DNA from: a virus | Lineage: Duplodnaviria; Caudoviricetes | Reading direction: 5' to 3' (one strand) | IMG/VR virus record: IMGVR_UViG_3300035700_000486 | Location: 1 to 52,708 of that record | DNA: 52,708 nt | Shown: positions 28,114 through 49,070 of the stretch, piece by piece | Layout: the number at the start of each line of letters is the position of its first letter | How positions within the stretch are numbered: position 1 is the stretch's first letter | The notes under the pieces: generated by a model | The model's database searches: none | What the model saw: the letters and a program-made list of their open reading frames with translations, nothing else | What the model was told of the DNA's origin: nothing | Program-made: the position numbers and the translations under genes

Positions 28114-28384
28114 AAAAACTTTTCATCTTTTTTAATTCTGTCATATATAATTATCAATTGCATATAATATAATGGGACAACCTATGCTTCGAAATTCTGC
28201 GAAAAATTTTTTAGTCTTTTCTTTTGTTACTGGCCCATTGGATTGAGTCAAAATATCTAACTCTGGTGTCGTTTATATTATCTGTAAAGTTATCTCTATT
28301 CCAACATATTAAAATCAATAATAGAATACATGATAAAATTATAAACATTTCAAAACCTCCTTAAAAACAATCTTTTTATAGTAT

Positions 28385-28918: not shown

Positions 28919-28929
28919 TTTCTTCCACC

Positions 28930-29166: not shown

Positions 29167-29175
29167 AATTCCACC

Positions 29176-29547: not shown

Positions 29548-29733
29548 TCACCTCTTATCATATGAGCAATCTACGTTTTCATTTATATCATCATAATCAT
29601 TAAAATAACTACAAGCTTCACATTTTGTAGTTTCTCCAGGGAAATCAGTAAGAGGTATATATTCACCTAACATAGGACAATTAACAAATATAACAGTAGG
29701 AACTTGCATAAGATCCCCTCCATGTATTATTTT

Positions 29734-30108: not shown

Positions 30109-30110
30109 GG

Positions 30111-30464
30111 TTAATCATCCTTATTCCAATAATCATCTAATGATCCCCCAATAACTGTAGATGTTATTTCTTCTTCTATGTCATTTCTCCAATTATCGTT
30201 TTCTTCATATCTGTTGATAACTTTCTCTAAAATTTCTAGCCACTCATCATAAGCGTCTATTTTCACCCCTGTAAATTCAATTTTGTCCCCATATAGTTCT
30301 TCGGCTACTTCCTTTGAATATTCATTGATTCCTTTATAAATGTCTTCAATACTTTTAAAGTTTACTTTAGCTAGTTCTAATAAAATGTTTTTTAAATCTT
30401 CCATTTCTTCTAGTTCATTTTCTTTAACCAAGGTATATATTTTTTTAGTATTCATTAAAATCAT
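30111..30464 (-). CDS. Acidic hypothetical protein
   Basis: AAGGAG RBS; very acidic. Confidence 0.6.
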   Translation of the reverse strand: MILMNTKKIYTLVKENELEEMEDLKNILLELAKVNFKSIEDIYKGINEYSKEVAEELYGDKIEFTGVKIDAYDEWLEILEKVINRYEENDNWRNDIEEEITSTVIGGSLDDYWNKDD

Positions 30465-30500
30465 CCACTCCTTTCAGTACAAAGAACCGCCGATATTGTT

Positions 30501-30692
30501 TTATTTGCAATATGGACAACCGTTTAACTTTTTAGCGTTTTCATTTTTATAAACAGTCTCTGTTTCTTTTAAATGTTCAGGTAATTCTTCAAGATAAGTA
30601 GCATCAACAACTTCGTCATCTTCATTTTCTTTTTCCTTTACATCCACTTTCATCCAAGCACCACATTTACATTGTTTTAAATAATACCTCAC
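30501..30692 (-). CDS. Small Zn-ribbon protein
   Basis: GGAGGTG RBS; CKCG...CPYC. Confidence 0.6.
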   Translation of the reverse strand: MRYYLKQCKCGAWMKVDVKEKENEDDEVVDATYLEELPEHLKETETVYKNENAKKLNGCPYCK

Positions 30693-30734
30693 TAAATCAC
30701 CTCCTCAGTGCAACTATCCCGCCGATCTATACCA

Positions 30735-31328
30735 CTAATGAAACACCTTCCTGTACGAGTGTTCAATATTAATCTGTGAATTTTGAGCATAGATTTGAGT
30801 TGTTGCCGGATCACTATGCCCCATCAACACTTGCACCTTATCCTGCTCGACTCCTGAATTAATTAAGTGAGAAGCAAATGAATGTCTAAAACGGTGCGGC
30901 TTGACCGGATGTCCTTCGGAACCTATATCAGCTTTCTTACCCATTTTTTTGATGTGTCTATAAAGACTGGACCTACTCATTCTGTTTTTATATCTGCTCT
31001 GAAATATCCAGTTGTTGTTATCCTCTCTAGTTTCTTTATATCTTTTCAGAAGCATAACTGCTTTAGTTGATAATAATGTAACCCGGTCCTTACCACCTTT
31101 CCCGTCAATTACTTCCACACGCTTATTTTGAAAATCAATATTATCCCAATCTAGGTCCCTGGCTTCTGAAATCCTAACTCCTGAACTGTAGAAAACTTCA
31201 ATTATCATTCTGTCAAATAATGAATTAGCTGCCTCTCTCATTCCTTCAATTTCTTCCTGGCTGAATGGATCAGGCTTCCGGTCCTGCTCTTTTGGCCGTT
31301 CAATCTTATTCATAATATTTTTTTTCAA
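30735..31328 (-). CDS. Tyrosine recombinase catalytic domain (C-terminal half of frameshifted gene)
   Basis: SGVRISE (R), GKGGK (K), HRFRH (HxxR), GHS (H), TQIY (Y) all intact. Confidence 0.9.
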   Translation of the reverse strand: MKKNIMNKIERPKEQDRKPDPFSQEEIEGMREAANSLFDRMIIEVFYSSGVRISEARDLDWDNIDFQNKRVEVIDGKGGKDRVTLLSTKAVMLLKRYKETREDNNNWIFQSRYKNRMSRSSLYRHIKKMGKKADIGSEGHPVKPHRFRHSFASHLINSGVEQDKVQVLMGHSDPATTQIYAQNSQINIEHSYRKVFH

Positions 31329-31881
31329 CTAAATCTTCTTTCTCCAGCCATTGAAAGTAACTGCTAAGAGTAACACACTTGTTCCTGATGGTAGAATTTT
31401 CATTTCCTGCTTTACGCTGTTTCATAAGATAATGTCTAACATCCCGAACTGTAACTTCTTCAATAGGTTTTTGAATTTCCTTAATAAAATTTTCTAATTT
31501 GCCTCTATAACCATCTATAGTATTTGAGCTGCATCCTTCAGATTCTTTCGTATACAAAAATTCATCAATAAGTTGAAACTCTCTGTCTTTATCAGCCCCT
31601 TCCAATTCACCGATAAAATTTTGATATTCAGCTTTGATCACTAACTCCACTTTTCCATCAGTCTTAACTAACATAAGTCCTCTGGATTTGTTTTCAAGCT
31701 GTTTTTCAAGCTGTGATAGAGACTTTTCTATCAGCTCCCGAGAATAACCAGTTAATTCTATTATTTTTTCAACTCTTACCGGTTTTTCTTTCCGGTAGAA
31801 AAATGCTTCCAGGAATGGTACCAATTTATCCTCAGCTGAAAATTTCTTTTTTTTAAATTGAACTACATTTGTTTCAGCCAT
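31306..31881 (-). CDS. ScpB-like winged helix fused to integrase core-binding (SAM-like) domain; N-terminal half of frameshifted recombinase
   Basis: LEAFFY..EKPV...RGLMLV...VELVIKAEY resembles ScpB N-terminus; FL..K..EG.S.NTI.GY...LSSYFQWL is the integrase N-domain; A8 run at 31318-31325. Confidence 0.7.
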   Translation of the reverse strand: MAETNVVQFKKKKFSAEDKLVPFLEAFFYRKEKPVRVEKIIELTGYSRELIEKSLSQLEKQLENKSRGLMLVKTDGKVELVIKAEYQNFIGELEGADKDREFQLIDEFLYTKESEGCSSNTIDGYRGKLENFIKEIQKPIEEVTVRDVRHYLMKQRKAGNENSTIRNKCVTLSSYFQWLEKEDLVEKKYYE

Positions 31882-31919
31882 GTTTACCTCCTATCTTTTA
31901 CAACAAAACATCCACATTT

Positions 31920-32114
31920 TTATTTAGTTAAATTTAAATTGATATCTTTTTTTATTGGTTTTCCAGCTAAAATATTTATATCGGGGCCACTTTCTTTTAA
32001 AGCACAAATCATAACTCCGTCATTAAAAACAATTGCTTCTTCATCACCAATTTCCCATTTTCCATCTTTAAATCTTTCTTCTGCAACAGTAAAGGCTTTT
32101 TCTAAACCATTCAT
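31920..32114 (-). CDS. Hypothetical protein
   Basis: GGGAGG RBS. Confidence 0.55.
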   Translation of the reverse strand: MNGLEKAFTVAEERFKDGKWEIGDEEAIVFNDGVMICALKESGPDINILAGKPIKKDINLNLTK

Positions 32115-32144
32115 AATAAAATGATCCTCCCATTAATTTTGATT

Positions 32145-34436
32145 TTATTTCCTTATCCTTTCGCCCAGCTTACTATACCTTTTTTCAACTTTATTATTTT
32201 TTATAGCCTTCCGTACCGCCCAGGTGTTACCTACCAGGATCAATCTATCCTTAGCCCTGGTCATTCCCGTATATAATAGATTTCTTTTAAGCATGATATA
32301 ATGACTTTTGGTCAGACTCATAATGACTATAGGAAATTCACTGCCCTGGCTCTTATGAATGGTAGTAGCATAGGCTAGTTTTAACAAATTAAATTCATCG
32401 ACAGTGAAGATCACCGGTTCTGGATCTTCATTATCAGTAATAACCACAAACATTTTATTACCATCTATTTTAACTACTTTCCCCAGGTTACCGTTGAAAA
32501 CCATCTTGTCATAATCATTTTTCACTACCATAACTTTATCTCCCAGTCTATACTTACCTAATTCAAATTTACCTGAGTAATCTTTATATTTACTGACAGG
32601 ATTAACTATTTCTCTTATAGTCTCATTCATGTTATCTACTCCAGAATCAGATTTATACATTGGAGAAAGAACCTGATAATCCATAGGAGTTTTACCATTT
32701 TCGTTTAAATCTTTTACTATATCAATGATTCTTTCAGCAGCCTGATCATCATCTATAATCTTTTCAAAATCAAAATCACCTTCACTTTTTAATTTGGGTA
32801 TTTCCCCGCTGGCAATTTCGTTGGCTTTCTTAGCTATAATAGAACCATTGGCCTGACGGAAATTATATTTGAGCCTGGTAGTAGGTATTTCTCCACTCCC
32901 TATCATATCTCTTAATACAGATCCAGCTCCAACAGAAGGTAACTGATCAATGTCACCTACAAGAACCACTCTCATATTTGTTTCTATAGCTGCGAACAGA
33001 TCTCTTGCCAGCTCTAGATCACACATTGAGAATTCATCAAGAATAATCAACCCGGGGCCTGGAAGTGGTTGCTCATATCCAAAAACAAATCCACCTTCCC
33101 AGGGGTTATACCTTAGTAATCGGTGGATTGTTTGAGCTTCTCTATTCGTCTGTTCTTCCATTCTTTTAGCTGCTTTCCCGGTAGGAGAAGCAAGATATAT
33201 GGTTCCGTCCGTAGTAGGCAAATCATAAGGACCTGAATTACTATTATTCATCCCTTCATAGATATTACATATAGAATTAATAACTGTAGTTTTTCCAGTG
33301 CCGGGTCCTCCAGTAATGATTGAAATGTTATTTTTAAATGCTCTTTTAATTGCTTCTCTCTGCTCTGGAGCATAATCGAATAACAAATTTTCTTCTTCCC
33401 ATTTAATGATCTGAGTAAATGCTGTATTTTTCAATTCATTTTCAGCATTGAGTAATATTTTGATTCGGTTAGCCAGTTCCTTTTCAGCATGAATATATCT
33501 GGGAATATAAACATCATTTCTTTCTCTTTTCAATTCATCCTGGTCATCAGCCATTTTCTTGACCATTCTACCTATTTCTTTAGTTTCCAGTTCTATATCC
33601 AATAACTTCTTAACTTTTTTTGATATCTTTTTAAATGGCAAATATACATGGCCATCATTTAAAGCTTCATTCAATACATGTTTTATAGCTGCTTTAAGTC
33701 GGAAGGGTGAATCCTTTTCAATTCCCAAACCCCTGGCTATTTTGTCAGCTGTAATAAATCCTATCCGGTCCACATCATCAATTAATATATATGGATTCTC
33801 TTCAATATCACTTAATATATTCCCCGCTTCTTTAGATCGAGTCATATAAGTAGACCAGATCCGGGAAGCCATTCCGGCTGAAATCCCTTTCTGACAAATT
33901 GAAGATTTAAATTCAGCTTGAAGAGAATTTTCGTTCAGATCCTTAGAGATCTGTTGGATCTGTTCATTTTCTATAAAATCGAATTGATTTAACACCTGAG
34001 GGTTCTTCTTTACTTTTTGTAATGTTTTTTCTCCTAACCGGTCAACTATTTTTTGAGCTCTTACTGGCCCAATACCATACATAATTGAAGATAAATAACG
34101 GCAAATTCCAGTCTCATTCTCAGGTAATAAAACTTCAAAGTTATCAAATTTAAATTGTAATCCATACTTACTATGTTTTTTGAATTTACCTTTTAACTGA
34201 TACTTACTCCCTTCCTGCGGTGAGCTCATATGACCCACCGCAGTAGTATTAGGAGCATTATCTCTGTCTATATCCAGTACACAGTAACCATTCTCTGGGT
34301 TGGAAAAGACTATACGGTCAATTATACCCTGAATTTCCTTAACCTCTTTATCAATCTTTTTTTGTTCCTTTTCTATATCCTCAACAGTTTCCACTTTTCC
34401 AGTACCATCTTCAAAATCTTTAAAAACAAATCCCAT
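32145..34436 (-). CDS. recD2: RecD2-family ATP-dependent helicase
   Basis: GIGPVRAQKIV, NPY, IGFITADKIA, GGPGTGKTT, DEFSM, GDIDQLPSVG, YATTIHKSQGSE, YTGMTRAK; RBS favours start at 34436. Confidence 0.93.
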   Translation of the reverse strand: MGFVFKDFEDGTGKVETVEDIEKEQKKIDKEVKEIQGIIDRIVFSNPENGYCVLDIDRDNAPNTTAVGHMSSPQEGSKYQLKGKFKKHSKYGLQFKFDNFEVLLPENETGICRYLSSIMYGIGPVRAQKIVDRLGEKTLQKVKKNPQVLNQFDFIENEQIQQISKDLNENSLQAEFKSSICQKGISAGMASRIWSTYMTRSKEAGNILSDIEENPYILIDDVDRIGFITADKIARGLGIEKDSPFRLKAAIKHVLNEALNDGHVYLPFKKISKKVKKLLDIELETKEIGRMVKKMADDQDELKRERNDVYIPRYIHAEKELANRIKILLNAENELKNTAFTQIIKWEEENLLFDYAPEQREAIKRAFKNNISIITGGPGTGKTTVINSICNIYEGMNNSNSGPYDLPTTDGTIYLASPTGKAAKRMEEQTNREAQTIHRLLRYNPWEGGFVFGYEQPLPGPGLIILDEFSMCDLELARDLFAAIETNMRVVLVGDIDQLPSVGAGSVLRDMIGSGEIPTTRLKYNFRQANGSIIAKKANEIASGEIPKLKSEGDFDFEKIIDDDQAAERIIDIVKDLNENGKTPMDYQVLSPMYKSDSGVDNMNETIREIVNPVSKYKDYSGKFELGKYRLGDKVMVVKNDYDKMVFNGNLGKVVKIDGNKMFVVITDNEDPEPVIFTVDEFNLLKLAYATTIHKSQGSEFPIVIMSLTKSHYIMLKRNLLYTGMTRAKDRLILVGNTWAVRKAIKNNKVEKRYSKLGERIRK

Positions 34437-34476
34437 ATAAAAATTTAACCTCCTTTGAAAAAACAACCATACGTTT

Positions 34477-34761
34477 TTATATTATTTTTTCTAAAATATT
34501 GTTACCTGCTACACATTTCCATCTTCCTTCTTTTGGGAAACCTGAATAAGGTATAAATGTATAGAAATAACCGTTTTTTGCTTCAATTGTTATAGAAAAA
34601 TGTGTACCTTTCCTATAAGAAGGATGTCTTCCTCCTGCTTTTTTAATATAAATGTTTTGAGCATATTCATTTATATCGTTTCTTTGATATACTTTACCTA
34701 CTTTCATTTTTTTATCCTGCTGTCCTTTTTCCATGATCCATAACCTCCCTGGCATTCTCAA
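34477..34761 (-). CDS. Hypothetical protein
   Basis: ORF between sbcD and recD2. Confidence 0.5.
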   Translation of the reverse strand: MRMPGRLWIMEKGQQDKKMKVGKVYQRNDINEYAQNIYIKKAGGRHPSYRKGTHFSITIEAKNGYFYTFIPYSGFPKEGRWKCVAGNNILEKII

Positions 34762-35722
34762 CTCTTACCATGGCTTCCTCTACCACTCTACCCGATATCT
34801 CTTCTTTCTTAGCTATATTTTCCATAATACTTTCCAGCTCCAAATAATTATTATCTCCTTCCTCAGCCAACAGACCTAAAAACTCTTTAGTCATTTCCTT
34901 CCTTCTCTTTTCCTTTTCTATGTGTTCCCGACTCAGGACTTCATGGCCCGGTTTAGCTGATTCTAATTCAATCAATTCAGCTTCCGGTTCACCTTCTTCA
35001 GGAATAGTTAATAATGCTACTTTGGGTTTCCTCTGGATATTAGCTTCAGAAGCTTTTATACGACCAATAGAACCGGGATTAATTAAGAGAGTACTATTCA
35101 TCTTCTTAATGCCAAATCCTTCGTGTTCATGTCCGTTTATCAGAATATCCGGTGCTTCTGGATGTTCTGCTACCTCACTGATTAATGTATGTCTCAATTC
35201 ATATCCTGGAGATTTATCTAATAGCATGCCGTGGGTAATTAATATCTTAGTTTGAGGTTCCTGGTCGTAAAAATCAGATTCATGAGGTAAATAGTATTTA
35301 ATATTCTTATCAGTAATATCCGAATTGAATCCATGTCCCTGTAAAACCAATCCACCTAATCCCGGGAATACTCTTTCCTGTAAATTGTTTATTAAATTAA
35401 AAGACAAAAATAAACCATAAGGAGTTCTGCTCATAGAGTTTAGATTGCCATTATATAGATCATGATTACCCGGAATACAAAATATTGCTGTTTTACATTT
35501 CTTTAATAAGGTTCCAAGTTGACTTATTAAAGATAAAGAAATTCCTGGACTATCAAATATATCTCCAGGAATAATAATACCCTTACATTTATTTTTTTTA
35601 GCTAATTCAAAAATTTCTATTATCTTTTCAACAATAGCATTAGTGTAATGATCTTTTCTGGCTTTAGGATTTCTACCGGTCCAGTGTAGATCGCCAGTAA
35701 CAATGAATTTAGTATCAGTCAT
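34712..35722 (-). CDS. sbcD: SbcD/Mre11-like metallophosphoesterase nuclease
   Basis: DLH, GDIFD, GNHD, THG, GHEH, NPGS motifs; likely start MTDTKF at 35722. Confidence 0.9.
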   Translation of the reverse strand: MTDTKFIVTGDLHWTGRNPKARKDHYTNAIVEKIIEIFELAKKNKCKGIIIPGDIFDSPGISLSLISQLGTLLKKCKTAIFCIPGNHDLYNGNLNSMSRTPYGLFLSFNLINNLQERVFPGLGGLVLQGHGFNSDITDKNIKYYLPHESDFYDQEPQTKILITHGMLLDKSPGYELRHTLISEVAEHPEAPDILINGHEHEGFGIKKMNSTLLINPGSIGRIKASEANIQRKPKVALLTIPEEGEPEAELIELESAKPGHEVLSREHIEKEKRRKEMTKEFLGLLAEEGDNNYLELESIMENIAKKEEISGRVVEEAMVRVENAREVMDHGKRTAG

Positions 35723-35873
35723 CTTTATCACCTTCAGGATTAGTATTATTAACAACTCTTTTAAATTCACTTAATGCAGTATTTTGTATATTTAAATCGC
35801 ATAATAGATCATCATTCAAATATAGATAATAATTTTCGGTTTTAGTATTATAAACTAATTTATACTTACTCAT
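35715..35873 (-). CDS. Small hypothetical protein (52 aa)
   Basis: Not in ORF track; MSKYKLVYNTKTENYY...; overlaps both neighbours as in translational coupling. Confidence 0.5.
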   Translation of the reverse strand: MSKYKLVYNTKTENYYLYLNDDLLCDLNIQNTALSEFKRVVNNTNPEGDKDD

Positions 35874-36142
35874 AACTGAATCACTCCATCTTCTTTTTCA
35901 AGCCCATTAAATTCAGTCCAACATCCATAAGAACAACAGCATTCAAAATCGTTCTCCGGAACCCCTTTACCTTTTTCGTAGAAGTCACCACAATTAACAC
36001 AGGATTCTAATTCTATAGTAAACTTTTTCTTTAAGTCAGGTATTCTTTCAATACAATTAATACATATAATTTCTCCAACTACATCTTTCCCATATATTTC
36101 TGAATCTTGACGAATTTCTTTACAAAAATCACATTCAAACAA
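35870..36142 (-). CDS. Cys-rich hypothetical protein
   Basis: CDFC, CINC, CVNC, CCCSYGC. Confidence 0.6.
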   Translation of the reverse strand: MFECDFCKEIRQDSEIYGKDVVGEIICINCIERIPDLKKKFTIELESCVNCGDFYEKGKGVPENDFECCCSYGCWTEFNGLEKEDGVIQL

Positions 36143-36324
36143 TCTCGTTCACCCCGTTTTCTTTATTTATTTTATTTTTCCTTCCGTTACTAATTGTATA
36201 ATGACAAATTACAGCTCTCATTGATGGATGGTATCCTTGAAAATGCTTACATCTTTCACATTTCAAAGTGTCAACATGTTTCATATTTCTATCACAAAAA
36301 AACTAATAATATGTCATGATTCAA
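36135..36324 (-). pseudogene. Small Cys-rich gene broken by one extra base in a T7 run
   Basis: GAGGTG RBS and TTG at 36324; T6 at 36296-36302 gives MNHDILLVFCDRNMKHVDTLKCERCKHFQG...VICHY... Confidence 0.5.
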
Positions 36325-36992
36325 ACTTCATTCACCTCACTATTACCGTTTTCATCACGGCTGACTCCATAACGCTTACTGGCCACCTCAGCCAAATCTC
36401 TATTATGAGTAGTCATAAGAATAGATCTTCCTGTTTTCTCAGAATATTCTTCTAAAAATTTAGCCAGATTGGGAGCATAATCAGAACTAACATGTTTCCC
36501 GGGTTCATCCGCATTTAATATACCTTCATTTTTAGGACTTGCCAGCTCAATTAAGGCTAACCTTAAAGCTATACTTACAATATCACTTACTCCACCACCA
36601 CGGGCACTTTCTGGGGGCTCAGCTACCCATTCGCCGTTATATTTGCTGACTACTTTCCACTCAGCTACCGGATTACCCCCTTTTTTATCAACTTCAACCT
36701 TAAACCTCAGATCACTATCATCAATAATAGATTGAAGAGCAGCTGTAACCGTTCTCTCAATCTTAGTTTTAAGCTGCTCTCTGGCAAATTCAGAAGTCTC
36801 AGCAAAAAGTAATTTAACCTTTTCCCAGGTTTCAAGATTTTCTTTAACCTGAGCCAGTTCCTCTTTAGTCTCCTTCAACTGCTCTTTGAGCAGGGATAAT
36901 TGACCTTTACCCTGCTCATATTTAGATTGGTACTGTTTGATTTGTAATTCGAGTTGAGATAGATCAATTTTATTTTGTAGTTGGTCTGTCAT
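36321..36992 (-). CDS. SbcC/Rad50 C-terminal half (ABC ATPase signature, Walker B)
   Basis: Coiled coil then SARGGG, ALRLAL, LNADEP, MTTH. Confidence 0.85.
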   Translation of the reverse strand: MTDQLQNKIDLSQLELQIKQYQSKYEQGKGQLSLLKEQLKETKEELAQVKENLETWEKVKLLFAETSEFAREQLKTKIERTVTAALQSIIDDSDLRFKVEVDKKGGNPVAEWKVVSKYNGEWVAEPPESARGGGVSDIVSIALRLALIELASPKNEGILNADEPGKHVSSDYAPNLAKFLEEYSEKTGRSILMTTHNRDLAEVASKRYGVSRDENGNSEVNEV

Positions 36993-37291
36993 TGGTTATC
37001 ACCTTCGTTACAGAAACGTTCTAAGAACATTGCTAAATTTGCAATGTCCACGAGATCGTCTTCTGTTAAATTATCAAATTGGCCCAACCCTCTAATTTTA
37101 TGAATGGCTTGCACACAATTTACCTCTAATTTATATCCTATAGTCCCTATAGCTTCGTATTCCTTCCACCCAGTCCAACCTTTTTCATCATATACCCTAT
37201 ATAATTTACTTTTTATTTTGTCAGCAAATCTATCAACAGCTTTACTTAGTTCTAATTTTTCTGGATCGACAGCATTTTGATTGTCAGCCAT
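36989..37291 (-). CDS. Hypothetical protein
   Basis: KGWTGW and DLVDIANLAMFL motif typical of small phage MazG-like helical proteins. Confidence 0.55.
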   Translation of the reverse strand: MADNQNAVDPEKLELSKAVDRFADKIKSKLYRVYDEKGWTGWKEYEAIGTIGYKLEVNCVQAIHKIRGLGQFDNLTEDDLVDIANLAMFLERFCNEGDNQ

Positions 37292-37293
37292 AA

Positions 37294-37593
37294 CTACATC
37301 TTCTCCAATTCATCCATACTGGGCAACATTTCATCAACTTCTTGTATATCATTCTTGATCTTTTCATCAAGCCTACTAATTTCATCTTCCAGATCCTCTC
37401 GGTCGACATCCATTTCCTCCAGTTGTTCCAGGAGTTTTTTTTCATTTTCCTTTACATTTTCTAATTTAGTTTCCAATTTAGTTTTCTTTGATTCAGCCTT
37501 TTTAGCCCGTTTCTTTAAGTCTTCTAAACTAATATCAGTATCAAATTCATCTGTTGGTTGACCACTCTTTAATTTTTCTCCGAAATCAATCAT
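37294..37593 (-). CDS. Acidic coiled-coil protein between the SbcC halves
   Basis: AAGGAGG RBS; heptad pattern. Confidence 0.65.
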   Translation of the reverse strand: MIDFGEKLKSGQPTDEFDTDISLEDLKKRAKKAESKKTKLETKLENVKENEKKLLEQLEEMDVDREDLEDEISRLDEKIKNDIQEVDEMLPSMDELEKM

Positions 37594-37832
37594 TATTCAG
37601 CCTCCTTTAAAATTTTAATATATGCATCCTTAACCTTTTCTTTTATATCACTAATAGTCATGTCTTCTACTTTTCCGGGATTCAAATTAATTGTTACATC
37701 ACCTTTAAAATTTTTATGACAGATTAAGCTTTCCACTTTTACCTTAATCATTAGTTTTTTTTCATAATTAAAAGTTCCAAATGTCGAAAGATCCGAGTAA
37801 TCAAATTCTATATTTTTTATATAAATTTGAAT

Positions 37833-39263
37833 TTAAATCACCTTCTTAATATTTTCTTCCTCAATCTCAGACCCGCACCGCTGGCAAATACCTTCTTCTT
37901 TTAATTTATCGGTATACATTTCTCTATATATTTCTGCTTTTTTTATAGATTCATCAATCATATGATTTTTTTTAGTAATTACTTTTTCAAATTCATTTAA
38001 TTTGTTTAATTTATCCTTTAAGTCTTGCAACTCAGATTTATTATTCGCAATTTTAATAACTTTTTCATTAGCTATATCTGCAGAAGCTACTTTATTATAA
38101 TTACCATAGATAACTGCTTTTTTACCGGAAAGATCATATAAGTTATAATGGATCTCTTCAAGTGATTGAATTTTATTTCTTTTATCTAAAATAGACTGAA
38201 TTAATTGGCTGGATTCCTTTACCTGAATTAATTCCCTTAATTTAAATTCATGATTTTTTTTGAGTTCATTCAAAAGTTTAGATTCATGCCTTCGGTTAAA
38301 TAATTTAGAATGTTTTCCTTTATCTTCAAAGATAGATTTTAATCTATCCTGAGCTTCCGCGGTATGTTCTAAATCTTCTATTGAATAATTTAGTTTTGAT
38401 TTTTTTTCATTCAATTCATCTAACCGCTCTTTTATACTTCGATAATCTAATAAATACTGTATATCAGTTTCAGTTTTATCCAACATTTTCACTGCCGGTT
38501 TTAATTGGATAAGCTTATCCAATGCTAATTCCAGTAAACCTTTTTTATGGTCATTGACTTCTAAAGCAGCCTTAATTTCCTTAAGCTTTTCTAATTTTTC
38601 TTTATTTGATTTAATTTCCTGCATTTTATTCTTAACATTTTTAAGTGTTTCTCCCAGTGGTTTAACCCAGCTATATTTCTCAATTTTTAAATTATATTTT
38701 TCAATATCTTCTTCAAGTGATTTTTGTTTCTGGCCAGATCTGTAAATATCAGTTCCTAATTCTTTATTGGCCTTATCTATAACCTCAGTACCAGCCAATT
38801 TCCCTAAAATTTTAGCCCTGGTTGGTGCTGTAATTGAGGATCCTAAGAAAGGACCGGATAATTGTCTGGCAATATTCAAATTCAAAGTTTCTCCGGCTAC
38901 ATCATAAGAATACACGCCTAAAACCTGTTGGACTTGCAGGGGAACGTTGTTTCCAAAGCCTTCATAAACTTCTTCGTAATCCCCCTCGCATATCCAGTAT
39001 TGGTTTAGGGAACTGGTCCTTCTTCTCATGACAGCAAGATCATTCTCCAATACAACAGTAACTATGCATTCAGTTTGACCATGCCTGATAAAATCATCAC
39101 CCTGAGGACGGTTATAAAATAACCACCGGAGAGCCCTGACTACAGCACTTTTCCCGTAGTCAGTAGGTCCGGTGATAACAGTTAAACCATTTCCAGCTGG
39201 CTTTATAACAGTATAATCATGACACTGGAAATTATCTATAATAATCTTTTTAATTTGTTTCAC
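37833..39263 (-). CDS. SbcC/Rad50 N-terminal half (Walker A to zinc hook)
   Basis: IDNFQCH, GPTDYGKS, ARQ Q-loop, long coiled coil ending in CQRCG; likely GTG start at 39263. Confidence 0.85.
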   Translation of the reverse strand: MKQIKKIIIDNFQCHDYTVIKPAGNGLTVITGPTDYGKSAVVRALRWLFYNRPQGDDFIRHGQTECIVTVVLENDLAVMRRRTSSLNQYWICEGDYEEVYEGFGNNVPLQVQQVLGVYSYDVAGETLNLNIARQLSGPFLGSSITAPTRAKILGKLAGTEVIDKANKELGTDIYRSGQKQKSLEEDIEKYNLKIEKYSWVKPLGETLKNVKNKMQEIKSNKEKLEKLKEIKAALEVNDHKKGLLELALDKLIQLKPAVKMLDKTETDIQYLLDYRSIKERLDELNEKKSKLNYSIEDLEHTAEAQDRLKSIFEDKGKHSKLFNRRHESKLLNELKKNHEFKLRELIQVKESSQLIQSILDKRNKIQSLEEIHYNLYDLSGKKAVIYGNYNKVASADIANEKVIKIANNKSELQDLKDKLNKLNEFEKVITKKNHMIDESIKKAEIYREMYTDKLKEEGICQRCGSEIEEENIKKVI

Positions 39264-39267
39264 CCTA

Positions 39268-39429
39268 TCACCCCAGCTCTTCTTCATATTTATTCAAAAG
39301 AGAATCAAGCTGGCCAACGGTTCTTTCCAGCTCTTCTTTGGCCAGCCTTTCTGATGTTCTGTTTGCTACTTTTTTGGCTTCATCAGTAAAACCTCTTAAC
39401 CTATGGTAGAATTCTTTTGATTTTTTCAT
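39268..39429 (-). CDS. Small hypothetical protein (53 aa)
   Basis: Not in ORF track; MKKSKEFYHRLRGFTDEAKK...; fills the intergenic gap. Confidence 0.5.
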   Translation of the reverse strand: MKKSKEFYHRLRGFTDEAKKVANRTSERLAKEELERTVGQLDSLLNKYEEELG

Positions 39430-39440
39430 AGCAAGCACCC

Positions 39441-40226
39441 TTAAGTTATATTATCCATATTGTCAAGATCAACATCATCTTCATTGTCGACATCAACTGT
39501 ATCGTCATTCATATAATCTTCCTGGGTAATATCCTGTTCCTGAGCAGACTTCTTAATCATTTTTCTCTGATCTCTTAACTCAAAAACTCTCTTTGGCGAA
39601 ACCTTATCTCCAATGCCAAATTTAGCAACCGCATAAGTGTAACCGTTACTTTCTTCTTCATTAAGAGTAATAATTGTTTTCTTCATTAGATCCGGAATGT
39701 TTTTGGTTACCCTGGCACTGATATAATTATCAAAATTTCTGATACTGGTAGGAGGAAGCGTTAACATTAGAGGTAATTGATACTCTTCCAGATCAAAATA
39801 CAATCTTCTCATTTCCTTACAGGCTTTACCAGCACTTTGTTCTCCAGAATCAGTTTCAGCACTTCCCCACTGATTATAAGGACATCCTGCGCACTGTCTT
39901 TCTTCTCCCGTATCAGTAACAATTCCAGTCCTGCCATCCATTGAACTACATTCAGGAACTTTTCCTCCACCAGGAGGCCAATAACCTCTGGCTTTATGTT
40001 TATAGGCAATAACTCCTTCAATTTCTTCCATTACATTATCGAAAGGATCAACAAATTTCTGTATGTCTTTATTAATTTTCAATTTAACCGGCTGTAGATC
40101 CACACCCTGAGTAGAGTTCTGTATTTCTTCCTGGTACATTTCAACTAATTGCTTTTTCTGCTCCTCATTTAATTCTTTCAGTTCTTCTTCGGAATATCCT
40201 AGTTCAGCTAAATCATTAGCCATCAT
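39441..40226 (-). CDS. Putative ssDNA-binding protein (Zn-binding, acidic tail)
   Basis: PECSS.DG, CAGCPYNQWGS, GKACKE, LPPTS; acidic C-terminal tail; recombination module context. Confidence 0.6.
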   Translation of the reverse strand: MMANDLAELGYSEEELKELNEEQKKQLVEMYQEEIQNSTQGVDLQPVKLKINKDIQKFVDPFDNVMEEIEGVIAYKHKARGYWPPGGGKVPECSSMDGRTGIVTDTGEERQCAGCPYNQWGSAETDSGEQSAGKACKEMRRLYFDLEEYQLPLMLTLPPTSIRNFDNYISARVTKNIPDLMKKTIITLNEEESNGYTYAVAKFGIGDKVSPKRVFELRDQRKMIKKSAQEQDITQEDYMNDDTVDVDNEDDVDLDNMDNIT

Positions 40227-40261
40227 CTATCATCCTTTCAAATTTATATTTTTGCTTCTTA

Positions 40262-40858
40262 TTACTCAATGCCAGCCAAAAGATTCATTCTAGCTTCCAG
40301 CATTCCGGCTACTCTCCTATAGCTTTTAAATTCATTATAAATTTTATCCAGCTCAAATTCATACTGTTCCAGTTTCTTTTCAGATTTCTTTAATGTTTTC
40401 GTGGCCTGCTGGAATTCATTATTTTCACTTTTCCATTTCTTTAATGCAGACTGCCTGGCATTTTTATTTGAATATAGTTTCTTTCCACCTTCCGTTTTTG
40501 CCTCATTAATTTCCATCATCAACATAGATTCAATTAATTCTACTTCCTGTTTGGCTTCTTCAACTTCATCTTTATAACCAGAGATAGTTTCTTTCATAGA
40601 TTCTATTTCTTCAGGAAACTCCATTAACTTACCTTTAACTTTTGAATATTCATCAGCCAAGTCAGTATATTCTTTCATTAACTTCTTCATATGTTCAGAT
40701 TTTTTTTGATTAATTTGAGATTTTTTTTGAGTAATAATATTTAATATTTTTTCAAAATCATTTTTTGTTGAAGTAATCTTTTGTTCTAATTCACCATTAA
40801 CTAAAGGCATATTATCCAAATCAGCTTTTGTATCCAAATTATCTAAATCTATAGCCAT
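40262..40858 (-). CDS. Coiled-coil hypothetical protein
   Basis: Long heptad helix; YSNKNAR motif. Confidence 0.65.
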   Translation of the reverse strand: MAIDLDNLDTKADLDNMPLVNGELEQKITSTKNDFEKILNIITQKKSQINQKKSEHMKKLMKEYTDLADEYSKVKGKLMEFPEEIESMKETISGYKDEVEEAKQEVELIESMLMMEINEAKTEGGKKLYSNKNARQSALKKWKSENNEFQQATKTLKKSEKKLEQYEFELDKIYNEFKSYRRVAGMLEARMNLLAGIE

Positions 40859-40931
40859 TTCTTTAATCCCCCTTAAATTTATGTTAAACTTAATAAAAGA
40901 ACAAACATTTTAATAAAAAAAGAAATTCAAT

Positions 40932-41117
40932 TTACTTCTGTTCAGTTGTTGCCGCAGCTGGACTTTTTTTGTGGACAGTATTCTTGATTAAAGTTTCTTC
41001 CCCATTGATCCTCTTCCAGAGATAAATTAATCTTTTCTTTTTCATCACTTTCACCTCCTGATATAATGATTGAATAAGCCGGATTTTATCCGACAATTTC
41101 ATTTTGTACACCTCCAA
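40932..41117 (-). CDS. Small hypothetical protein
   Basis: GGAGGTG RBS (probable start ~41102). Confidence 0.5.
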   Translation of the reverse strand: MEVYKMKLSDKIRLIQSLYQEVKVMKKKRLIYLWKRINGEETLIKNTVHKKSPAAATTEQK

Positions 41118-41126
41118 TTTCTTTTA

Positions 41127-41265
41127 TGAGGCAGGGGCAGGATTCGAACCTGCAGCTTCATTTAGGTGTGCTCCCAATCTAGAATATTACACTACAAAGC
41201 TGGAATTGAACCAGACTACCTTTTCAGGTGTGTTCCCTGATCTAGAATTTTTACACTACCCTGCC
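41127..41265 (-). ncRNA. tRNA-like RNA without anticodon, with duplicated D-arm/T-loop modules
   Basis: Acceptor GGCAGGG/CCCTGCC, U8A9, D stem GTGT/ACAC, canonical T arm GCAGG-TTCGAAT-CCTGC, second T-loop CTGG-TTCAATT-CCAG. Confidence 0.7.
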
Positions 41266-41301
41266 ACGTCATTAGTGGAAATGTATCAAAATATAAATAT
41301 C

Positions 41302-41451
41302 ATTCATCCCACCCCTATGCACAACACGCTCGCTTTTGACTTCTCTTGTAATCGAGAGCCATTTGAAAGGTCTAAGGTGGCGTCGAAGCTCGGGAATTTC
41401 ACCGTCTTTGCCGCTGCAGGAAGGGAGGCTTTCAACCGAAGTAGGATGAAT
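41302..41451 (-). ncRNA. ~150-nt GC-rich structured RNA candidate
   Basis: 14-bp closing stem ATTCATCCTACTTC/GGGGTGGGATGAAT (G-U pairs on minus strand), inner TTGAAAG/CTTTCAA stem; GC island in AT-rich DNA. Confidence 0.55.
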
Positions 41452-41470
41452 TATTTAGCTGTCAAAGATC
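41452..41470 (-). promoter_or_regulatory. boxA-like antitermination/processing sequence
   Basis: GATCTTTGACAGCTAAATA resembles the Firmicute rRNA-leader TTCTTTGAAAACT(G/A)AA motif. Confidence 0.5.
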
Positions 41471-41573
41471 TACGTTATATTTAATAAATGTTATTAATTT
41501 CTGTTAAAAAAATATAATAAAATTGTTATAAAAGGTGTGAAAATTATCTATGTATAACCACACCTTGAGCGGA

Positions 41574-41783
41574 TCAGGCCGTTTCTTCGACCTGGTCCGG
41601 GGTTTCACCGGTGCACTCCCTTGCGGTGTTCTCCGATTCCTGTAGTTCCTTTATTTTTGCTTTTTGCGCTCTCCTGTAACCTACAGCTATAATTCCAATG
41701 AAATCATCCCAGCGTTTTTTCAGATCAGAACTCATTTCATCAAAGTTAAGTTTTGGCGTTTTTTCGGTTGCTTTACTCAACAT
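41574..41783 (-). CDS. Small hypothetical protein
   Basis: AGGGAG RBS. Confidence 0.55.
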   Translation of the reverse strand: MLSKATEKTPKLNFDEMSSDLKKRWDDFIGIIAVGYRRAQKAKIKELQESENTARECTGETPDQVEETA

Positions 41784-41802
41784 TAATCATCTCCCTGATG
41801 TT

Positions 41803-42606
41803 TTAATCAATATTGTCGCTTTCAATAAATAGATCTTCTCCATATTTGGGAAAAGCTTTTAATAATTTCTTTCTGGATGTTTTACCAGTTGCAGAATGCC
41901 AATCAAGTAATCTCCAAAGATGATTGCGGGAAATCCCTATATAATCTGCCATTTCTGACTTAGACCATCTTCTATTCTTAGTAATTTTCTCTAATAATCT
42001 TGAATTAACATAAATTTGTTTTGAGTTATTAGATATAATTTCATCTTCAGTCATATTAATTTCATCAAGATCCACAGGGATATTAACACCAGCTTTTTCA
42101 AATATTGATTTTGCTGTATTAAGTTTTGCCTCTTTGGTAGCTGCAATTTCATCTAAAGTTTTCTTAATTTCTTTAAAAGTTTTAAGAGCTAGTTTAGGAG
42201 TAAATTCAGACTTGTTTTTCTCCATATTCAAAAGATAAGTTCTAACTTTCTTTGCTATTGGACTATCTCTCAAAAGCATTCCTATTCTTAGGAGTGCTTT
42301 TCTGGGAATGATTGTTAATTTAGATGCATATTTAAGGGTAGTTGGGTTTTCCAACTTGCCTTTAAATTTTTCTAATTCTTTATTCTTTAAAATCTTTAAA
42401 CCATCAGATTTTAATTCATTTTTGTGTTCACTAATTGTAGATTTGATAGTTCCTTCAGGCACTTCATAAAAATTTGCTGATTGATTTACTGTAACAATAA
42501 AATTATCAGTCAAATATTGAATAGATTTCACCTTATCTAAAACCTCAATATTTTTTATTTTTTCTTCTCTGAGTGTACGACTTTCAACTAAAGCTAGATC
42601 ATTCAT
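41803..42606 (-). CDS. Antirepressor-like DNA-binding protein with C-terminal HTH
   Basis: ANFYEV...LLRIGMLLRDSPIAKKVRTYLL N-domain; WSKSEMADYIGISRNHLWRL HTH; downstream of cro. Confidence 0.65.
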   Translation of the reverse strand: MNDLALVESRTLREEKIKNIEVLDKVKSIQYLTDNFIVTVNQSANFYEVPEGTIKSTISEHKNELKSDGLKILKNKELEKFKGKLENPTTLKYASKLTIIPRKALLRIGMLLRDSPIAKKVRTYLLNMEKNKSEFTPKLALKTFKEIKKTLDEIAATKEAKLNTAKSIFEKAGVNIPVDLDEINMTEDEIISNNSKQIYVNSRLLEKITKNRRWSKSEMADYIGISRNHLWRLLDWHSATGKTSRKKLLKAFPKYGEDLFIESDNID

Positions 42607-45174: not shown

Positions 45175-46677
45175 ATGCCAGCAAATCCTAAAAAAGGCGT
45201 TTCATACATCAGAGTATCAAAAAAACGTGATAATATGCTAACAGTAGATACCCAGAAAGATAAAATGGGAAAATTCTGCGAACTGCATGATATTAAACTA
45301 ATAGATACTTACCAGGATATTGATTTTTCCGGACGTACCGGCAACAGACCAGCCTTTCAAAAATTGCTTTCTGACATAGAAAATGAAATCATCAATCCAA
45401 ATTATTTTTTAGTATATAAAGTGGACAGGTTTTCAAGAACTGCTAAAGAATTCTATAAATTCATGACTAAGCTGGAAGATAATAATGTGGATTTAATCTC
45501 TATTACCCAGCATTTTGACACTTCTACTCCTATTGGAAGAGCTATGATGGGTATATTAATCCAGTTTGCTCAATTTGAATCAGATATGACCGGCCAGAGG
45601 ATTAAGGATAATCTACAAAACAATGCTGAAAAAGGAAGATGGAATGGTGGGAATGTGCCTTACGGATATATTTGGGATGAGGAAGAAAAATTATTAAAAC
45701 CGGATCCAGAAGAATCAGAAATAGTAAAAAGAATATTTAAAATGTATACCAGGGGGCACGGAAGCAGTACTATAATTCAATATTTAGAAGAAAAGAGTAT
45801 AGTTTCCCCTTCCGGGAATAACAAATGGGACCGTACTACTATATCCTATCTAATAAGAAATCCATTGTATCTAGGTAAAATTAAGTATGATAATGAAGTA
45901 TATAACGGACAGCATGAAGCTATTATTGGGGAGGACGCCTTTAAACAAGCTAATAAAATACTTGATAATTATGCAGAATCAAACACTACTGAATCAACTT
46001 ATTTACTTAGTGGATTAACTGAATGTGGAGCATGTGGTCAATATGGATTTAATACTTTTTTTGGCTCAGGAAAATATCGTAGTAGAAGATATGTCTGCAG
46101 CCGTAGAGGAAGAAACTCCAAAAAAGAATGTTCAATGGCTGCTTATGATGCAGAATCCCTGGAAGAAAAAGTTTGTGATGAAATATTTTCTCTATCAAAT
46201 AATGAAAGTTTTTTTGAAAAACTAAAAAATAAATTAAACTCAACAGATAGAAAGAAAATAAATAATCTTGAACAGAAGGAAAAATATTTGAAAAAGAAAA
46301 TAAATAAATTGGATAAAACTTTATCTAAAATGTTTGCAGATCATTATGAAAAAGAAATCATTCCTGAAAATCAATTTATTAAGTTCTCTAAAAAATATGA
46401 AGATCAAAAAGAAAAAATAGTGGCCAGTTTAGAAAATATCAGAACAGCAATAGAAGATCAAAATTTAAGAGAAGAAAACATTAATATAATAAAAGAATCG
46501 ATTTCAACTCTTAAAGAAAGCTGGGATTATTTAAGCTGTCAGGAAAAAAATCAAGCATTGAAGAGAGTAGTTGATAAAGTTATCCTATATAAAGATAAAA
46601 TTGAAATTGATCTTTTTTATACAAAAATAAAAATCAACGATATCAGTAAAAAAAGAAAAGTACGCTACCTTGCTTGA
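45175..46677 (+). CDS. Large serine integrase
   Basis: YIRVS catalytic Ser, DRFSR, PYGY recombinase domain, LSGLTECGACG...YVC...C zinc ribbon, coiled coil. Confidence 0.95.
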   Translation: MPANPKKGVSYIRVSKKRDNMLTVDTQKDKMGKFCELHDIKLIDTYQDIDFSGRTGNRPAFQKLLSDIENEIINPNYFLVYKVDRFSRTAKEFYKFMTKLEDNNVDLISITQHFDTSTPIGRAMMGILIQFAQFESDMTGQRIKDNLQNNAEKGRWNGGNVPYGYIWDEEEKLLKPDPEESEIVKRIFKMYTRGHGSSTIIQYLEEKSIVSPSGNNKWDRTTISYLIRNPLYLGKIKYDNEVYNGQHEAIIGEDAFKQANKILDNYAESNTTESTYLLSGLTECGACGQYGFNTFFGSGKYRSRRYVCSRRGRNSKKECSMAAYDAESLEEKVCDEIFSLSNNESFFEKLKNKLNSTDRKKINNLEQKEKYLKKKINKLDKTLSKMFADHYEKEIIPENQFIKFSKKYEDQKEKIVASLENIRTAIEDQNLREENINIIKESISTLKESWDYLSCQEKNQALKRVVDKVILYKDKIEIDLFYTKIKINDISKKRKVRYLA

Positions 46678-46709
46678 TATATAAGTGTTTTCAGCAATAG
46701 AATATTTCC

Positions 46710-46753
46710 GGACATAGTGAGGAAGTCGCTGGTGCGACTTCCTCACTATGTCC
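46710..46753. repeat. Perfect 20-bp inverted repeat, candidate attP
   Basis: GGACATAGTGAGGAAGTCGC-TGGT-GCGACTTCCTCACTATGTCC, 32 bp after integrase stop, no U-tract on either side. Confidence 0.6.
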
Positions 46754-46795
46754 ATACAAATACTGGTATTTTTATTGAGCTTTCATTAATTATTT

Positions 46796-46872
46796 CTGGC
46801 TATAGCGCAGCTTGGTAGCGCGCTTGCTTCGGGAGCAAGAGGTCCTCGGTTCAAATCCGAGTAGCCAGACCA
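46796..46872 (+). tRNA. tRNA-Pro(CGG)
   Basis: Acceptor CTGGCTA/TAGCCAG, anticodon arm CTTGC-TTCGGGA-GCAAG, T arm CTCGG-TTCAAAT-CCGAG, encoded CCA. Confidence 0.93.
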
Positions 46873-47084
46873 TTTTTTTATCCCTATAATTTTATTTTTA
46901 TATTTTATCAATTACTTTTGTGAGTTCTGCTAAAATAATAACAATATATTCAATATATAATATAATAAACAATAATATAATACATACGATAGTATTTTAG
47001 CATTTAATGATTTGAGAAATGGTTGACATGACAGTCAGAACTCGACCACATATAATCAACTCCATTTGATGTTCATTTGATGGT

Positions 47085-47771
47085 CTATTCGACTACCTGT
47101 TTAACGGGTTTACTTAAAAAATCTATAACTTTTAATATTTTTTCTGGGCTCTGTTCAATATAAATCGGCTGTAAATTTGTTCTCTGAACTTCATCTATCC
47201 ATTCATATAATATATCTGTTCTTTTGGAATGCCAGACTACATAATTACATTTTAGATTGTTCTGCCTATACTCCCTCTCATAATCTTTCCATTTGTTTTG
47301 AATAAATTCTTTGTTTTCCCCTCCTGATAAATCTATCTCTAGACAAAAAGAGACATCATAATTTATATAAGCATCTGGCCTAATATTTCCTAACTCTTTT
47401 TCTAACTCAAACCCGTTTATCTCAATAATATCACGGCATTTTAGTTCAATTATTAATTGATTGACTTTGAGTCTGTGTGGCGCTTTAAGCTGTGAAAATC
47501 GAGGTCTGAGAGCTTCCTGACCTGTATCTTGCTTAAATAATTTCTTACCTTTGGCTGACACTCTAAATATTGGAGTTTGTTTACGGCTGTTTCTATGCGA
47601 TAGATAATCACGATCTATATAATTTTTATCCAGCAAAGACTCCCTAATCCTTCTTTGAGCCATATCATAAGATGGAAATTCCAACTGCTGTATCTGAGAG
47701 TGAGAAAGCCAACCATGATAACCTAAATGGTATACGACCCTTCTATCTCTAGGCCTGAACTCAGAAGGCAT
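47085..47771 (-). CDS. Replication-relaxation family protein
   Basis: N-terminal wHTH, H..KVN, RPDAY...CLEIDL...K..DY PD-(D/E)xK-like pattern; follows FtsK gene. Confidence 0.75.
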   Translation of the reverse strand: MPSEFRPRDRRVVYHLGYHGWLSHSQIQQLEFPSYDMAQRRIRESLLDKNYIDRDYLSHRNSRKQTPIFRVSAKGKKLFKQDTGQEALRPRFSQLKAPHRLKVNQLIIELKCRDIIEINGFELEKELGNIRPDAYINYDVSFCLEIDLSGGENKEFIQNKWKDYEREYRQNNLKCNYVVWHSKRTDILYEWIDEVQRTNLQPIYIEQSPEKILKVIDFLSKPVKQVVE

Positions 47772-47774
47772 TTA

Positions 47775-49070
47775 TTATAACTTCACTCCTTTCCTTTTAT
47801 TTTTAGCTTTCACTTTTGATTCAGACTTCTTTCTTGCTTCCTCCAGATCCACTACATTACTTTCTTTTTCTTCCTCAGACTTAAACTGCTTATATCTTTC
47901 CTGTAATAACTTTTTAGCTCTACCCGGTGATAAATACGGTGCCTGAAATTTTATGTTTTTATTTAGTTTAAATATTCCGCGTCCAGGTATATCTTCCAGA
48001 TCCGCTGCCAGATTATTACCTAATACTATACGAGAATTAACTCCATCGGTAACCCTATGACAAATTTTAACCTGAGTATTTGCTTTGATCTGGCCGTCAA
48101 TCACCTGAGCATCCGGTCTCTGGGTACAAACTATAAAAAATATCCCTGCAGCTCTTCCCATCCGGAATAATTTCCCCAGCTTTGACTGTATAGCTTTACC
48201 CGTCTTTTTTTCATCTCCCACTAACATATTAGGAGACAATTCAGCATATTCATCAAAAACTACTACAATATAAGGAAAACTATTATCTGGCAACTGGTTA
48301 ACATTTGTCACTCGTTCTTCTTCCATAATTTCATACCTGTATTCCATTTGTTCTTCCACTTCAATTAAGTTATCCAGGACCTGATCATGATCTGTAGCAT
48401 AACCATTTTCATTTACATAAGGTGAATCTTTAAATATTGCCAGCTCCACTTTTTTAAGGTCATTGAGATAAAATTTTACATAATCCGGAGAATAATTCAT
48501 AATTAAAGAAGTTATCATACTTCTAATAGTGACAGATTTACCTGATCCGGAATAACCTGCTATAAGAAAATGGAGTTGCTTTTCTGCTATATCAAAAGTG
48601 ATTAATTCTTCTTTGGTGTAACCTATAGGGATCCCTAACTTCATTTTTTTAAGTTTTTTTAATATTTTCCTTGAATACGGATACTTGTTTTCAAATTTTT
48701 CTGTAATAATTTTCATGGTTAATTTTCTACCTTCAGAATTAAACTGGACTTCCGATTCCAGAGCTGTTTCTATTTCTTCTTTTCTTTTAATAAAATTTTT
48801 GGGTTTTTTGCCGTAAGGGATAGTATATTCAGCCTGGTACCCATAATCAGTTTTTTGATGATTTCTTAACCTGGGATATTCTTTAATATCTTTATTAATC
48901 TTATTATAGAGTTTAGTGTGTTCAAATACCTTGTTGAGCTTTTTCTCTGTTTCTGAACGATCATCTTCTTTTTTGAAGGCCTTGGGCAATAAACAAATAG
49001 CACTACCCAACGATCCAAAGCCTAAAATTTGCCACCATTGAGGCAACCACTGTAAAACTTCTAGATTCAT
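47775..49070 (-). CDS. FtsK/SpoIIIE-domain ATPase
   Basis: N-terminal TM; HFLIAGYSGSGKS, DLKKVEL, VFDEYAEL, GRAAGI, TQRP. Confidence 0.92.
   Translation of the reverse strand: MNLEVLQWLPQWWQILGFGSLGSAICLLPKAFKKEDDRSETEKKLNKVFEHTKLYNKINKDIKEYPRLRNHQKTDYGYQAEYTIPYGKKPKNFIKRKEEIETALESEVQFNSEGRKLTMKIITEKFENKYPYSRKILKKLKKMKLGIPIGYTKEELITFDIAEKQLHFLIAGYSGSGKSVTIRSMITSLIMNYSPDYVKFYLNDLKKVELAIFKDSPYVNENGYATDHDQVLDNLIEVEEQMEYRYEIMEEERVTNVNQLPDNSFPYIVVVFDEYAELSPNMLVGDEKKTGKAIQSKLGKLFRMGRAAGIFFIVCTQRPDAQVIDGQIKANTQVKICHRVTDGVNSRIVLGNNLAADLEDIPGRGIFKLNKNIKFQAPYLSPGRAKKLLQERYKQFKSEEEKESNVVDLEEARKKSESKVKAKNKRKGVKL

Follow-up and report, generated by a model that had tools for sequence, protein, structure and literature searches.

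Phage T4 produces the species 1 and 2 RNAs (rnaC/rnaD), small stable RNAs that are co-transcribed with tRNAs and released by RNase P, an enzyme whose minimal substrate is an acceptor stem stacked on a T arm. Antitermination elements are also carried by phage transcripts. In lambda, nutR is positioned after the cro-side genes, and the boxA of nut, like that of rRNA leaders, is a loading site for NusB/NusE. The put RNA of HK022 is an RNA-only antiterminator, formed by two adjacent stem-loops of about 70 nt just after the promoter.

In the 52.7-kb viral record analysed here (the window, that is, the whole stretch of 52,708 nucleotides), a GC-rich non-coding block lies on the minus strand between a self-cleaving ribozyme and a tRNA-like element. 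A first-pass annotation had described it as a multibranch RNA preceded by a boxA-like site, and had proposed either a nut/put-like antitermination element or a small RNA released by RNase P at the tRNA mimic; of these mechanisms, the putative small RNA is the most plausible. By mechanism, the block would most resemble the rnaC/rnaD type of RNAs freed by tRNA-processing enzymes. Both are structured non-coding stretches of about 120-150 nt, directly beside tRNA-shaped elements in a phage transcript, and in both cases tRNA-processing enzymes can define the ends, for the block by prediction. However, the neighbour of the block is a non-decoding tRNA look-alike, whereas that of the T4 RNAs is a true tRNA. 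Moreover, the block has a self-cleaving ribozyme upstream and sits in a protein-coding early operon, and there is no sequence relationship between the two. As for put, both it and the block would be folded RNAs of a phage early transcript, but the block has 150 nt, one long closing stem and an ill-defined interior, with neither a similarity to put nor an Rfam match.

Genome setting and neighbours of the block

Judging by its genes, the record is a temperate Firmicute phage, with an overall GC content of 0.329 and almost all phage genes on the minus strand. The lysogeny genes recognized with Pfam and PHROGs are those of a cI-like repressor, an ImmA-like protease and a serine integrase beside a tRNA-Pro. 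A cro-like gene (43047-42808, minus strand) with a promoter-like site close by diverges from the cI-like side; an anti-repressor-like gene comes next, then SbcC-like and ATPase genes, while the replication genes are 7-15 kb away from the block. Since the cro-like gene and its promoter-like site sit 1.6 kb upstream, the block is not at the head of a ~22-kb early operon, where it had been placed before.

The block is located in a 450-nt untranslated gap of the minus strand, between a 69-aa ORF (41783-41574) and the next small ORF, with its ATG at 41102. Read along this strand, the gap contains a twister-sister ribozyme, an AT-rich spacer, the boxA-like motif GATCTTTGACAGCTAAATA, the GC-rich block, a linker, the tRNA-like element, a GGAGG and the ATG, with ribozyme, block, double tRNA mimic and ribosome binding site packed into 520 nt. 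A limited literature search on this arrangement of ribozyme, block and tRNA-like element returned nothing specific, and is too thin to claim that it is unpublished.

The twister-sister self-cleaving ribozyme (41631-41556, minus strand) scores 38.5 bits with Rfam family RF02681, whose gathering score is 34, at an E-value of 5e-5 for the window, and it is a possible 5' boundary of a released RNA. The ribozyme takes in the final ~19 codons of the 69-aa ORF; thus, if this ORF is genuine, cleavage would truncate its mRNA. The 5' strand of the ribozyme P1, CACACC, recurs downstream of the ribozyme (41537-41532), and this copy could compete for GGUGUG, forming a hairpin followed by a U-rich tract. 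Between the ribozyme and the motif there is a spacer of ~85 nt with 17% GC, which carries one promoter-like site, TTCACA-16-TATTAT (41541-41514, minus strand), with 10 of the 12 consensus positions. This site may be an alternative 5' boundary, and the number of promoter-like sites in the region is at shuffle level.

On the 3' side, an AU-rich linker leads to the tRNA-like element (41265-41130, minus strand). As first annotated, it begins 36 nt after the block, the acceptor strand GGCAGGG starting at 41265, exactly that distance past the stem. The element consists of two tandem modules (repeats D6 and D10) within one 7-bp acceptor stem, GGCAGGG/CCCUGCC; its T arm is canonical (GCAGG-UUCGAAU-CCUGC) and its 3' tail is UCA, not CCA. 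ARAGORN gives nothing at default settings and finds the element only when introns are allowed and the threshold is lowered, and Rfam returns a weak match to the 3' end of tmRNA. The features of an RNase P substrate are present, namely a 7-bp acceptor stem stacked on a 5-bp T stem with its T loop, and the element is a candidate RNase P site that would set the 3' boundary of the block RNA. The GGAGG Shine-Dalgarno sequence and the ATG (41115-41100, minus strand) of the next small ORF, of 61 aa, lie 15 nt past it.

Some other observations were made at this junction. The tRNA-like element is a tandem duplication with a period of ~63 nt, in which the module reads GTAGTGTAA..TTCTAGAT..GGGA.CACACCT, and its two palindromic TCTAGA copies can pair together. 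A partial third copy of the module, with 70% identity over 27 nt, is found at 41104-41078, at the start of the 61-aa ORF. On the plus strand, a promoter-like TTTTCA-17-TG-TATAAT is present within 41039-41163, and the terminator-like hairpin that comes after it is the T arm read in antisense. Strong opposite-strand promoter-like sites occur at the same junction in four related loci (L016 3066-3094, minus; L005 3084-3112, minus; L080 11358-11442, plus; L025 2944-3009, minus), two of these sites having an extended -10 and 9 and 11 of 12 consensus positions, and in L080 and L025 a canonical terminator is found 30-50 nt after the site. Such an opposite-strand promoter with its terminator may specify a small antisense RNA, which would cover the beginning of the following gene.

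Fold, strand and composition of the block

What the sequence establishes is a domain that is rich in GC, does not code for protein and has a long closing stem, a helix of 14-20 bp. The 14-bp closing stem of the first-pass annotation is present on the minus strand (P1; 5' strand AUUCAUCCUACUUC at 41451-41438, 3' strand GGGGUGGGAUGAAU at 41315-41302), and is seen in the inverted-repeat scan, in the pair probabilities and in the helix count. This helix, ATTCATCCTACTTC / GGGGTGGGATGAAT, has 14 contiguous base pairs, of which five are G-C and three are G-U, with zero mismatches; the pair probability is 0.85-1.0 for 11 of the 14 pairs and ~0.55 for the innermost three. Beyond a 2-nt bulge, the stem can be extended by six A-U pairs (41457-41452 / 41299-41294, probability 0.8-0.9), which are formed with the last six bases of the boxA-like motif. 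The strand had been regarded as uncertain at first, but all three G-U pairs would become A-C mismatches on the plus strand and are compatible with the minus strand alone, which favours the gene strand.

Helices of at least 14 bp with at least five G-C pairs are found in just two places outside one repeat cluster, counting both strands (105 kb), and a helix of equal quality to the closing stem is present in a coding region at 17099. When G-U pairs are allowed, helices of at least 13 bp are common in the record, with 29 on the plus strand and 51 on the minus strand, 80 in all.

Regarding the interior (41437-41316, minus strand), the inner stems that had been annotated all exist in the sequence. 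TTGAAAG (41434-41428) and CTTTCAA (41369-41363) are both present and can pair with each other, but TTGAAAG can also pair, in competition, with GCTTCGAC. The CUC/GAG-centred hairpin is present at 41361-41337 (probability 0.6-0.99) and is the single ensemble-stable hairpin of the interior; in a diffuse ensemble, it and the closing stem alone exceed a probability of about 0.7. Since the MFE structure represents 0.04% of the ensemble and TTGAAAG has a rival partner, the description as a multibranch RNA is not established. The fold energy is no better than that of shuffled sequences, with an MFE z-score of +0.51 for the minus strand and -0.39 for the plus strand. The block also contains a pyrimidine-rich stretch resembling an anti-Shine-Dalgarno sequence, CCUCCCUUCC, whose accessibility is intermediate only.

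The 140-nt segment 41449-41310 is the GC maximum of the 52.7-kb record (0.514 vs 0.329), a value reached by 0.03% of the segments of this size, and the sole other non-coding GC island of the record is the adjoining twister-sister ribozyme. The single long open frame of the block on the minus strand, of 60 codons, lacks a start codon, and a comparison with 1.84 billion protein representatives returned 0 matches at E<=0.001. A tblastx comparison with 43 related loci, which are the surroundings of the relatives of a 261-aa protein in genomes and viral contigs, had its best E (0.28) over the tRNA-like element and the ORF start, outside the block. With an open frame that lacks both start codon and relatives, and tblastx empty for the block, a decayed gene was rejected. 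A 12/15 match between the block and the conserved hairpin of the ribozyme led us to test for a decayed second copy of the ribozyme. This candidate was rejected as well: the alignment score was 21 against a shuffle mean of 19.9 (sd 3.7), 365 of 1000 dinucleotide shuffles equalled it, and Rfam found no copy of twister-sister other than 41631-41556.

An Rfam search had been proposed when the block was first annotated, and no family matches the block, either at the gathering scores or at E up to 10. In the latter search (Rfam 15, 1.2 kb, with riboswitches, EAR, ribozymes, Y RNA-like and tmRNA families included) the interior was unmatched, and the sole overlap with the block was a 15-bit snoRNA match (E 6.3) at 41275-41312. 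The non-coding GC island, the stem that depends on G-U pairs and the location between a ribozyme and a tRNA-like element make it probable, on indirect grounds, that the block is a feature of the RNA of the minus strand.

Relatives of the block and RNA elements of related phages

The block was unmatched in blastn searches of the phage collection, and an exact 24-mer taken from it was present in 0 stretches of the viral contigs. In the same contigs, the tRNA-module motif gave nothing for the block, the neighbour proteins used as single queries gave no relatives, and the closing-stem pattern had one match, apparently in coding DNA and unmatched by R1, a covariance model built from the single sequence of the block. 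With the ATPase as query, the metagenome contigs yielded one distant locus, and no homologue of the block came from it. Among the 43 related loci, the block was unmatched by blastn and nhmmer (best E 0.18), and R1 had no match in the 42 loci on which it was run, L012 being omitted as a duplicate of L003. In 72 Halanaerobiales genomes, the blastn matches were limited to the AT-rich spacer and the T arm, and R1 gave one match of 25.6 bits (G040), inside a 394-aa ORF, plus one of 17.4 bits. Covariation evidence for the block is absent because no homologue was found in the loci and genomes searched. According to these comparisons, the block belongs to none of the families tested.

The closest relative reached was L002, a prophage in a Halanaerobiales MAG whose matched flanking proteins are 38-71% identical to those of the window. 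Its syntenic spot, between the anti-repressor-like and 198-aa genes, is without the block and has instead an 86-aa ORF and 200 nt of unrelated DNA with 36% GC. Closer relatives are known as proteins (P0002-P0007), which have 57-67% identity to the 261-aa protein.

In related phages, the same operon is repeatedly punctuated by RNA devices, such as ribozymes, tRNA-like elements and stem-closed leaders. L002 has a tRNA-like element right before a ribosome binding site, with a weak Rfam match to tRNA-Sec (25.2 bits), and look-alikes of an acceptor stem and T arm, as judged by eye, are present in L003/L012, L013 and L025. ARAGORN calls no look-alike in the 43 loci, and Rfam calls none at E up to 0.5 in the seven loci scanned. 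In L014, a hammerhead II ribozyme (4282-4361, plus strand; 40.7 bits vs a gathering score of 37) fills the gap between the homologue of the 261-aa protein and the next small ORF.

Five loci contain members of a leader family, here called R2 (L020 3193-3290; L023 3391-3486; L025 3005-3116; L080 11262-11362, minus strand; L086 4281-4386). These leaders have ~95-110 nt, are GC-rich and are closed by the sequence-conserved stem GGCURCCCCGU.CGC / GCG.GCGGGGYGGC, with a variable interior, one covarying pair (A-U/G-C) and conserved G-U pairs; a nearby GGGG offers the CCCC of the 5' side a second partner and thus allows alternative folds. The family has no Rfam match at E up to 1, and its covariance model gives 76-93 bits to the members and 22.6 bits to the next best locus match. 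R2 leaders share with the block a high GC content, the absence of coding capacity, a long terminal stem and the location in the same early operon. They also occupy the same slot, before the 198-aa coiled-coil gene (L020 and L023) or the next genes, and in L025 a tRNA-like element follows 7 nt after the leader. Moreover, CUAC and GGGGUGG are common to R2 and to the stem in the window. However, the interiors are unrelated, and the block is unmatched by the R2 model: with filters off over 40800-42000, no hit covers it, and the top score, of 4.2 bits, falls at another position, as opposed to the 76-93 bits of the members, and membership was rejected. The other GC-rich element considered is that of L002 (2479-2658, plus strand), a stem-closed non-coding block of ~165 nt past the 198-aa gene, with a GC content of 0.53 vs 0.37 and an MFE z-score of -1.9. 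Rfam does not match this element, the 72 Halanaerobiales genomes contain no relative of it, and its kinship to the block of the window was rejected for lack of a convincing alignment.

Possible roles of the block

We tentatively propose that the block (about 41457-41294, minus strand) may be a lineage-specific structured non-coding RNA module that is excised from the early transcript. The transcript would come from the cro-side promoter and be cut by the twister-sister ribozyme, or alternatively it could start within the AT-rich spacer, at the promoter-like site located there. RNase P would then cut 5' of G41265, which would also free the downstream mRNA, and the product would be a stable RNA of roughly 240-360 nt, with its ends protected by the long closing stem. 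That such an RNA may act in trans or bind a protein is a guess. The structured-RNA reading is favoured by the non-coding GC maximum, the strand-specific closing stem, the true ribozyme upstream and the canonical minihelix of acceptor stem and T arm downstream, and also by the RNA elements that related phages have in this operon. Against it are the lack of a homologue and of covariation, the lack of the block in L002, a fold energy and a promoter-like site at shuffle level and the ill-defined interior. Alone, with no relatives found, the block is a weak candidate. A more detailed version, which we regard as speculative and quite unlikely as a whole, would have the block as the body of an undescribed phage small RNA, cut at the 5' side by the twister-sister ribozyme and at the 3' side by RNase P at the non-decoding double tRNA mimic, and acting in trans, for instance by means of CCUCCCUUCC, whose targets would be Shine-Dalgarno sequences. 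In this version, sister phages would have functional counterparts, diverged past recognition, in their stem-closed leaders that lie next to tRNA-like elements.

It is also conceivable, although we consider it somewhat less likely, that the block is an inert relic or spacer, either a decayed RNA module or a foreign GC-rich fragment in a fast-changing intergenic region, with a stem that arose by chance. The want of homologues and covariation, the MFE z-score of the minus strand and the lack of the block in the closest relative all speak for it, long helices are frequent in the window, with one of equal quality inside a coding region, and the region is in flux, as indicated by the duplicated tRNA-like module and its partial third copy. 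However, an unselected 150-nt stretch with 51% GC in a genome of 33% GC should erode, and yet it is the most extreme of the record; no trace of a former gene or sign of a decayed twister-sister copy is left in it, and the stem departs from Watson-Crick pairing by G-U pairs only, with zero mismatches. A role in cis is less probable and we see it as unlikely: the block would be a leader (an attenuator, a ligand- or protein-binding domain or a stabilizer) governing the recombination and replication genes downstream. It does lie just downstream of the promoter-like site of the AT-rich spacer, and a different stem-closed GC-rich leader occupies the 5' untranslated region in L080 and precedes genes in L020, L023, L025 and L086. 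Nevertheless, neither a terminator nor a partner that would sequester a ribosome binding site was seen, there is no terminator-like site on the minus strand in 41118-41573, and no riboswitch family matches at E up to 10. Moreover, the tRNA-like cutting signal between block and gene would detach the block from the very mRNA it should control. That the block acts as DNA is very improbable. Its imperfect inverted repeat, with an 8-bp perfect core (ATTCATCC/GGATGAAT), and a composition different from that of the flanks could suit an origin, a site bound by a protein or a small mobile insert whose ends are marked by the repeat, but as DNA the arms are complementary at only 11 of 14 positions, and all three departures are G-T on one strand. 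Furthermore, no second copy exists in the record or in the 72 Halanaerobiales genomes, there are no iterons, and the replication genes are 7-15 kb off.

The antitermination reading, in which a boxA-like site recruits NusB/NusE or the RNA modifies the polymerase for a long operon to be read through, is not supported and we take it to be very improbable. The motif itself, GATCTTTGACAGCTAAATA, is present at 41470-41452 on the minus strand, but its likeness to boxA, on which the first-pass annotation relied, is at chance level. We built a small matrix from six boxA sites of three complete Halanaerobiales genomes (three leaders and three 16S-23S spacers, located via the 16S genes), all six having the invariant core TTGAAAA within roughly GNNC-(C/T/A)-TTGAAAA. 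The motif of the phage reads GATCTTTGACAG, with C and G at two invariant A positions (TTGACAG vs TTGAAAA), and its score of 7.97 ranks 34-35 among 105,392, with 33 positions of the window scoring higher, the host order being taken only from the closest relative. As in lambda nut, the motif has a U-rich core, UCUUUGA, lies in an untranslated stretch after the cro-side genes and is followed by a small hairpin. In lambda this is boxB, with a GNRA-like pentaloop and a few bases from boxA, and the system includes the arginine-rich protein N; here there is only a 3-bp GGU/GCC stem with the loop UGAAA, 15 nt after the 19-nt motif (probability ~0.55). Moreover, TCTTTGA is found both in GATCTTTGACAGC and in the boxA that one Halanaerobiales genome has in its 16S-23S spacer (GTTCTTTGAAAAC). 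However, in the predicted fold the stem extension takes up half of the motif, and none of the 17 neighbouring ORFs has an antiterminator annotation in Pfam or PHROGs, N-like proteins being too small and variable to be excluded in this way. There is also no downstream excess of terminators to overcome: shuffles predict 8.3 terminator-like sites for 21400-41300 and 8 are seen, of which a single weak one is on the gene strand, so nothing in the downstream 20 kb calls for processive antitermination, in a scan blind to Rho-dependent sites. The lack of an Rfam match is a further point against the nut/put-like mechanism first proposed. The TTGACA within the motif was also considered as a -35 box and rejected, with no -10 at 16-18 nt.

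If the block is real, it would add a case of phage early operons with folded RNA modules that can be swapped and whose limits are set by ribozymes and tRNA-like cutting signals, and the compact cassette would be convenient for asking why phages excise such RNAs.

Elsewhere in the record, the segment 25260-25561, upstream of an 844-aa gene (25579-28113), is a dense cluster of inverted and direct repeats of 13-21 bp built on GGGGGTGTAATATTGTAATA, which could be an origin or an operator array. The serine integrase gene (45175-46677) abuts tRNA-Pro(CGG) (46796-46872). Since Replic_Relax and FtsK/SpoIIIE genes are found beyond them (45175-49070 for the whole region), the prophage is probably not all that the record contains, and it would continue into host DNA or another mobile element.
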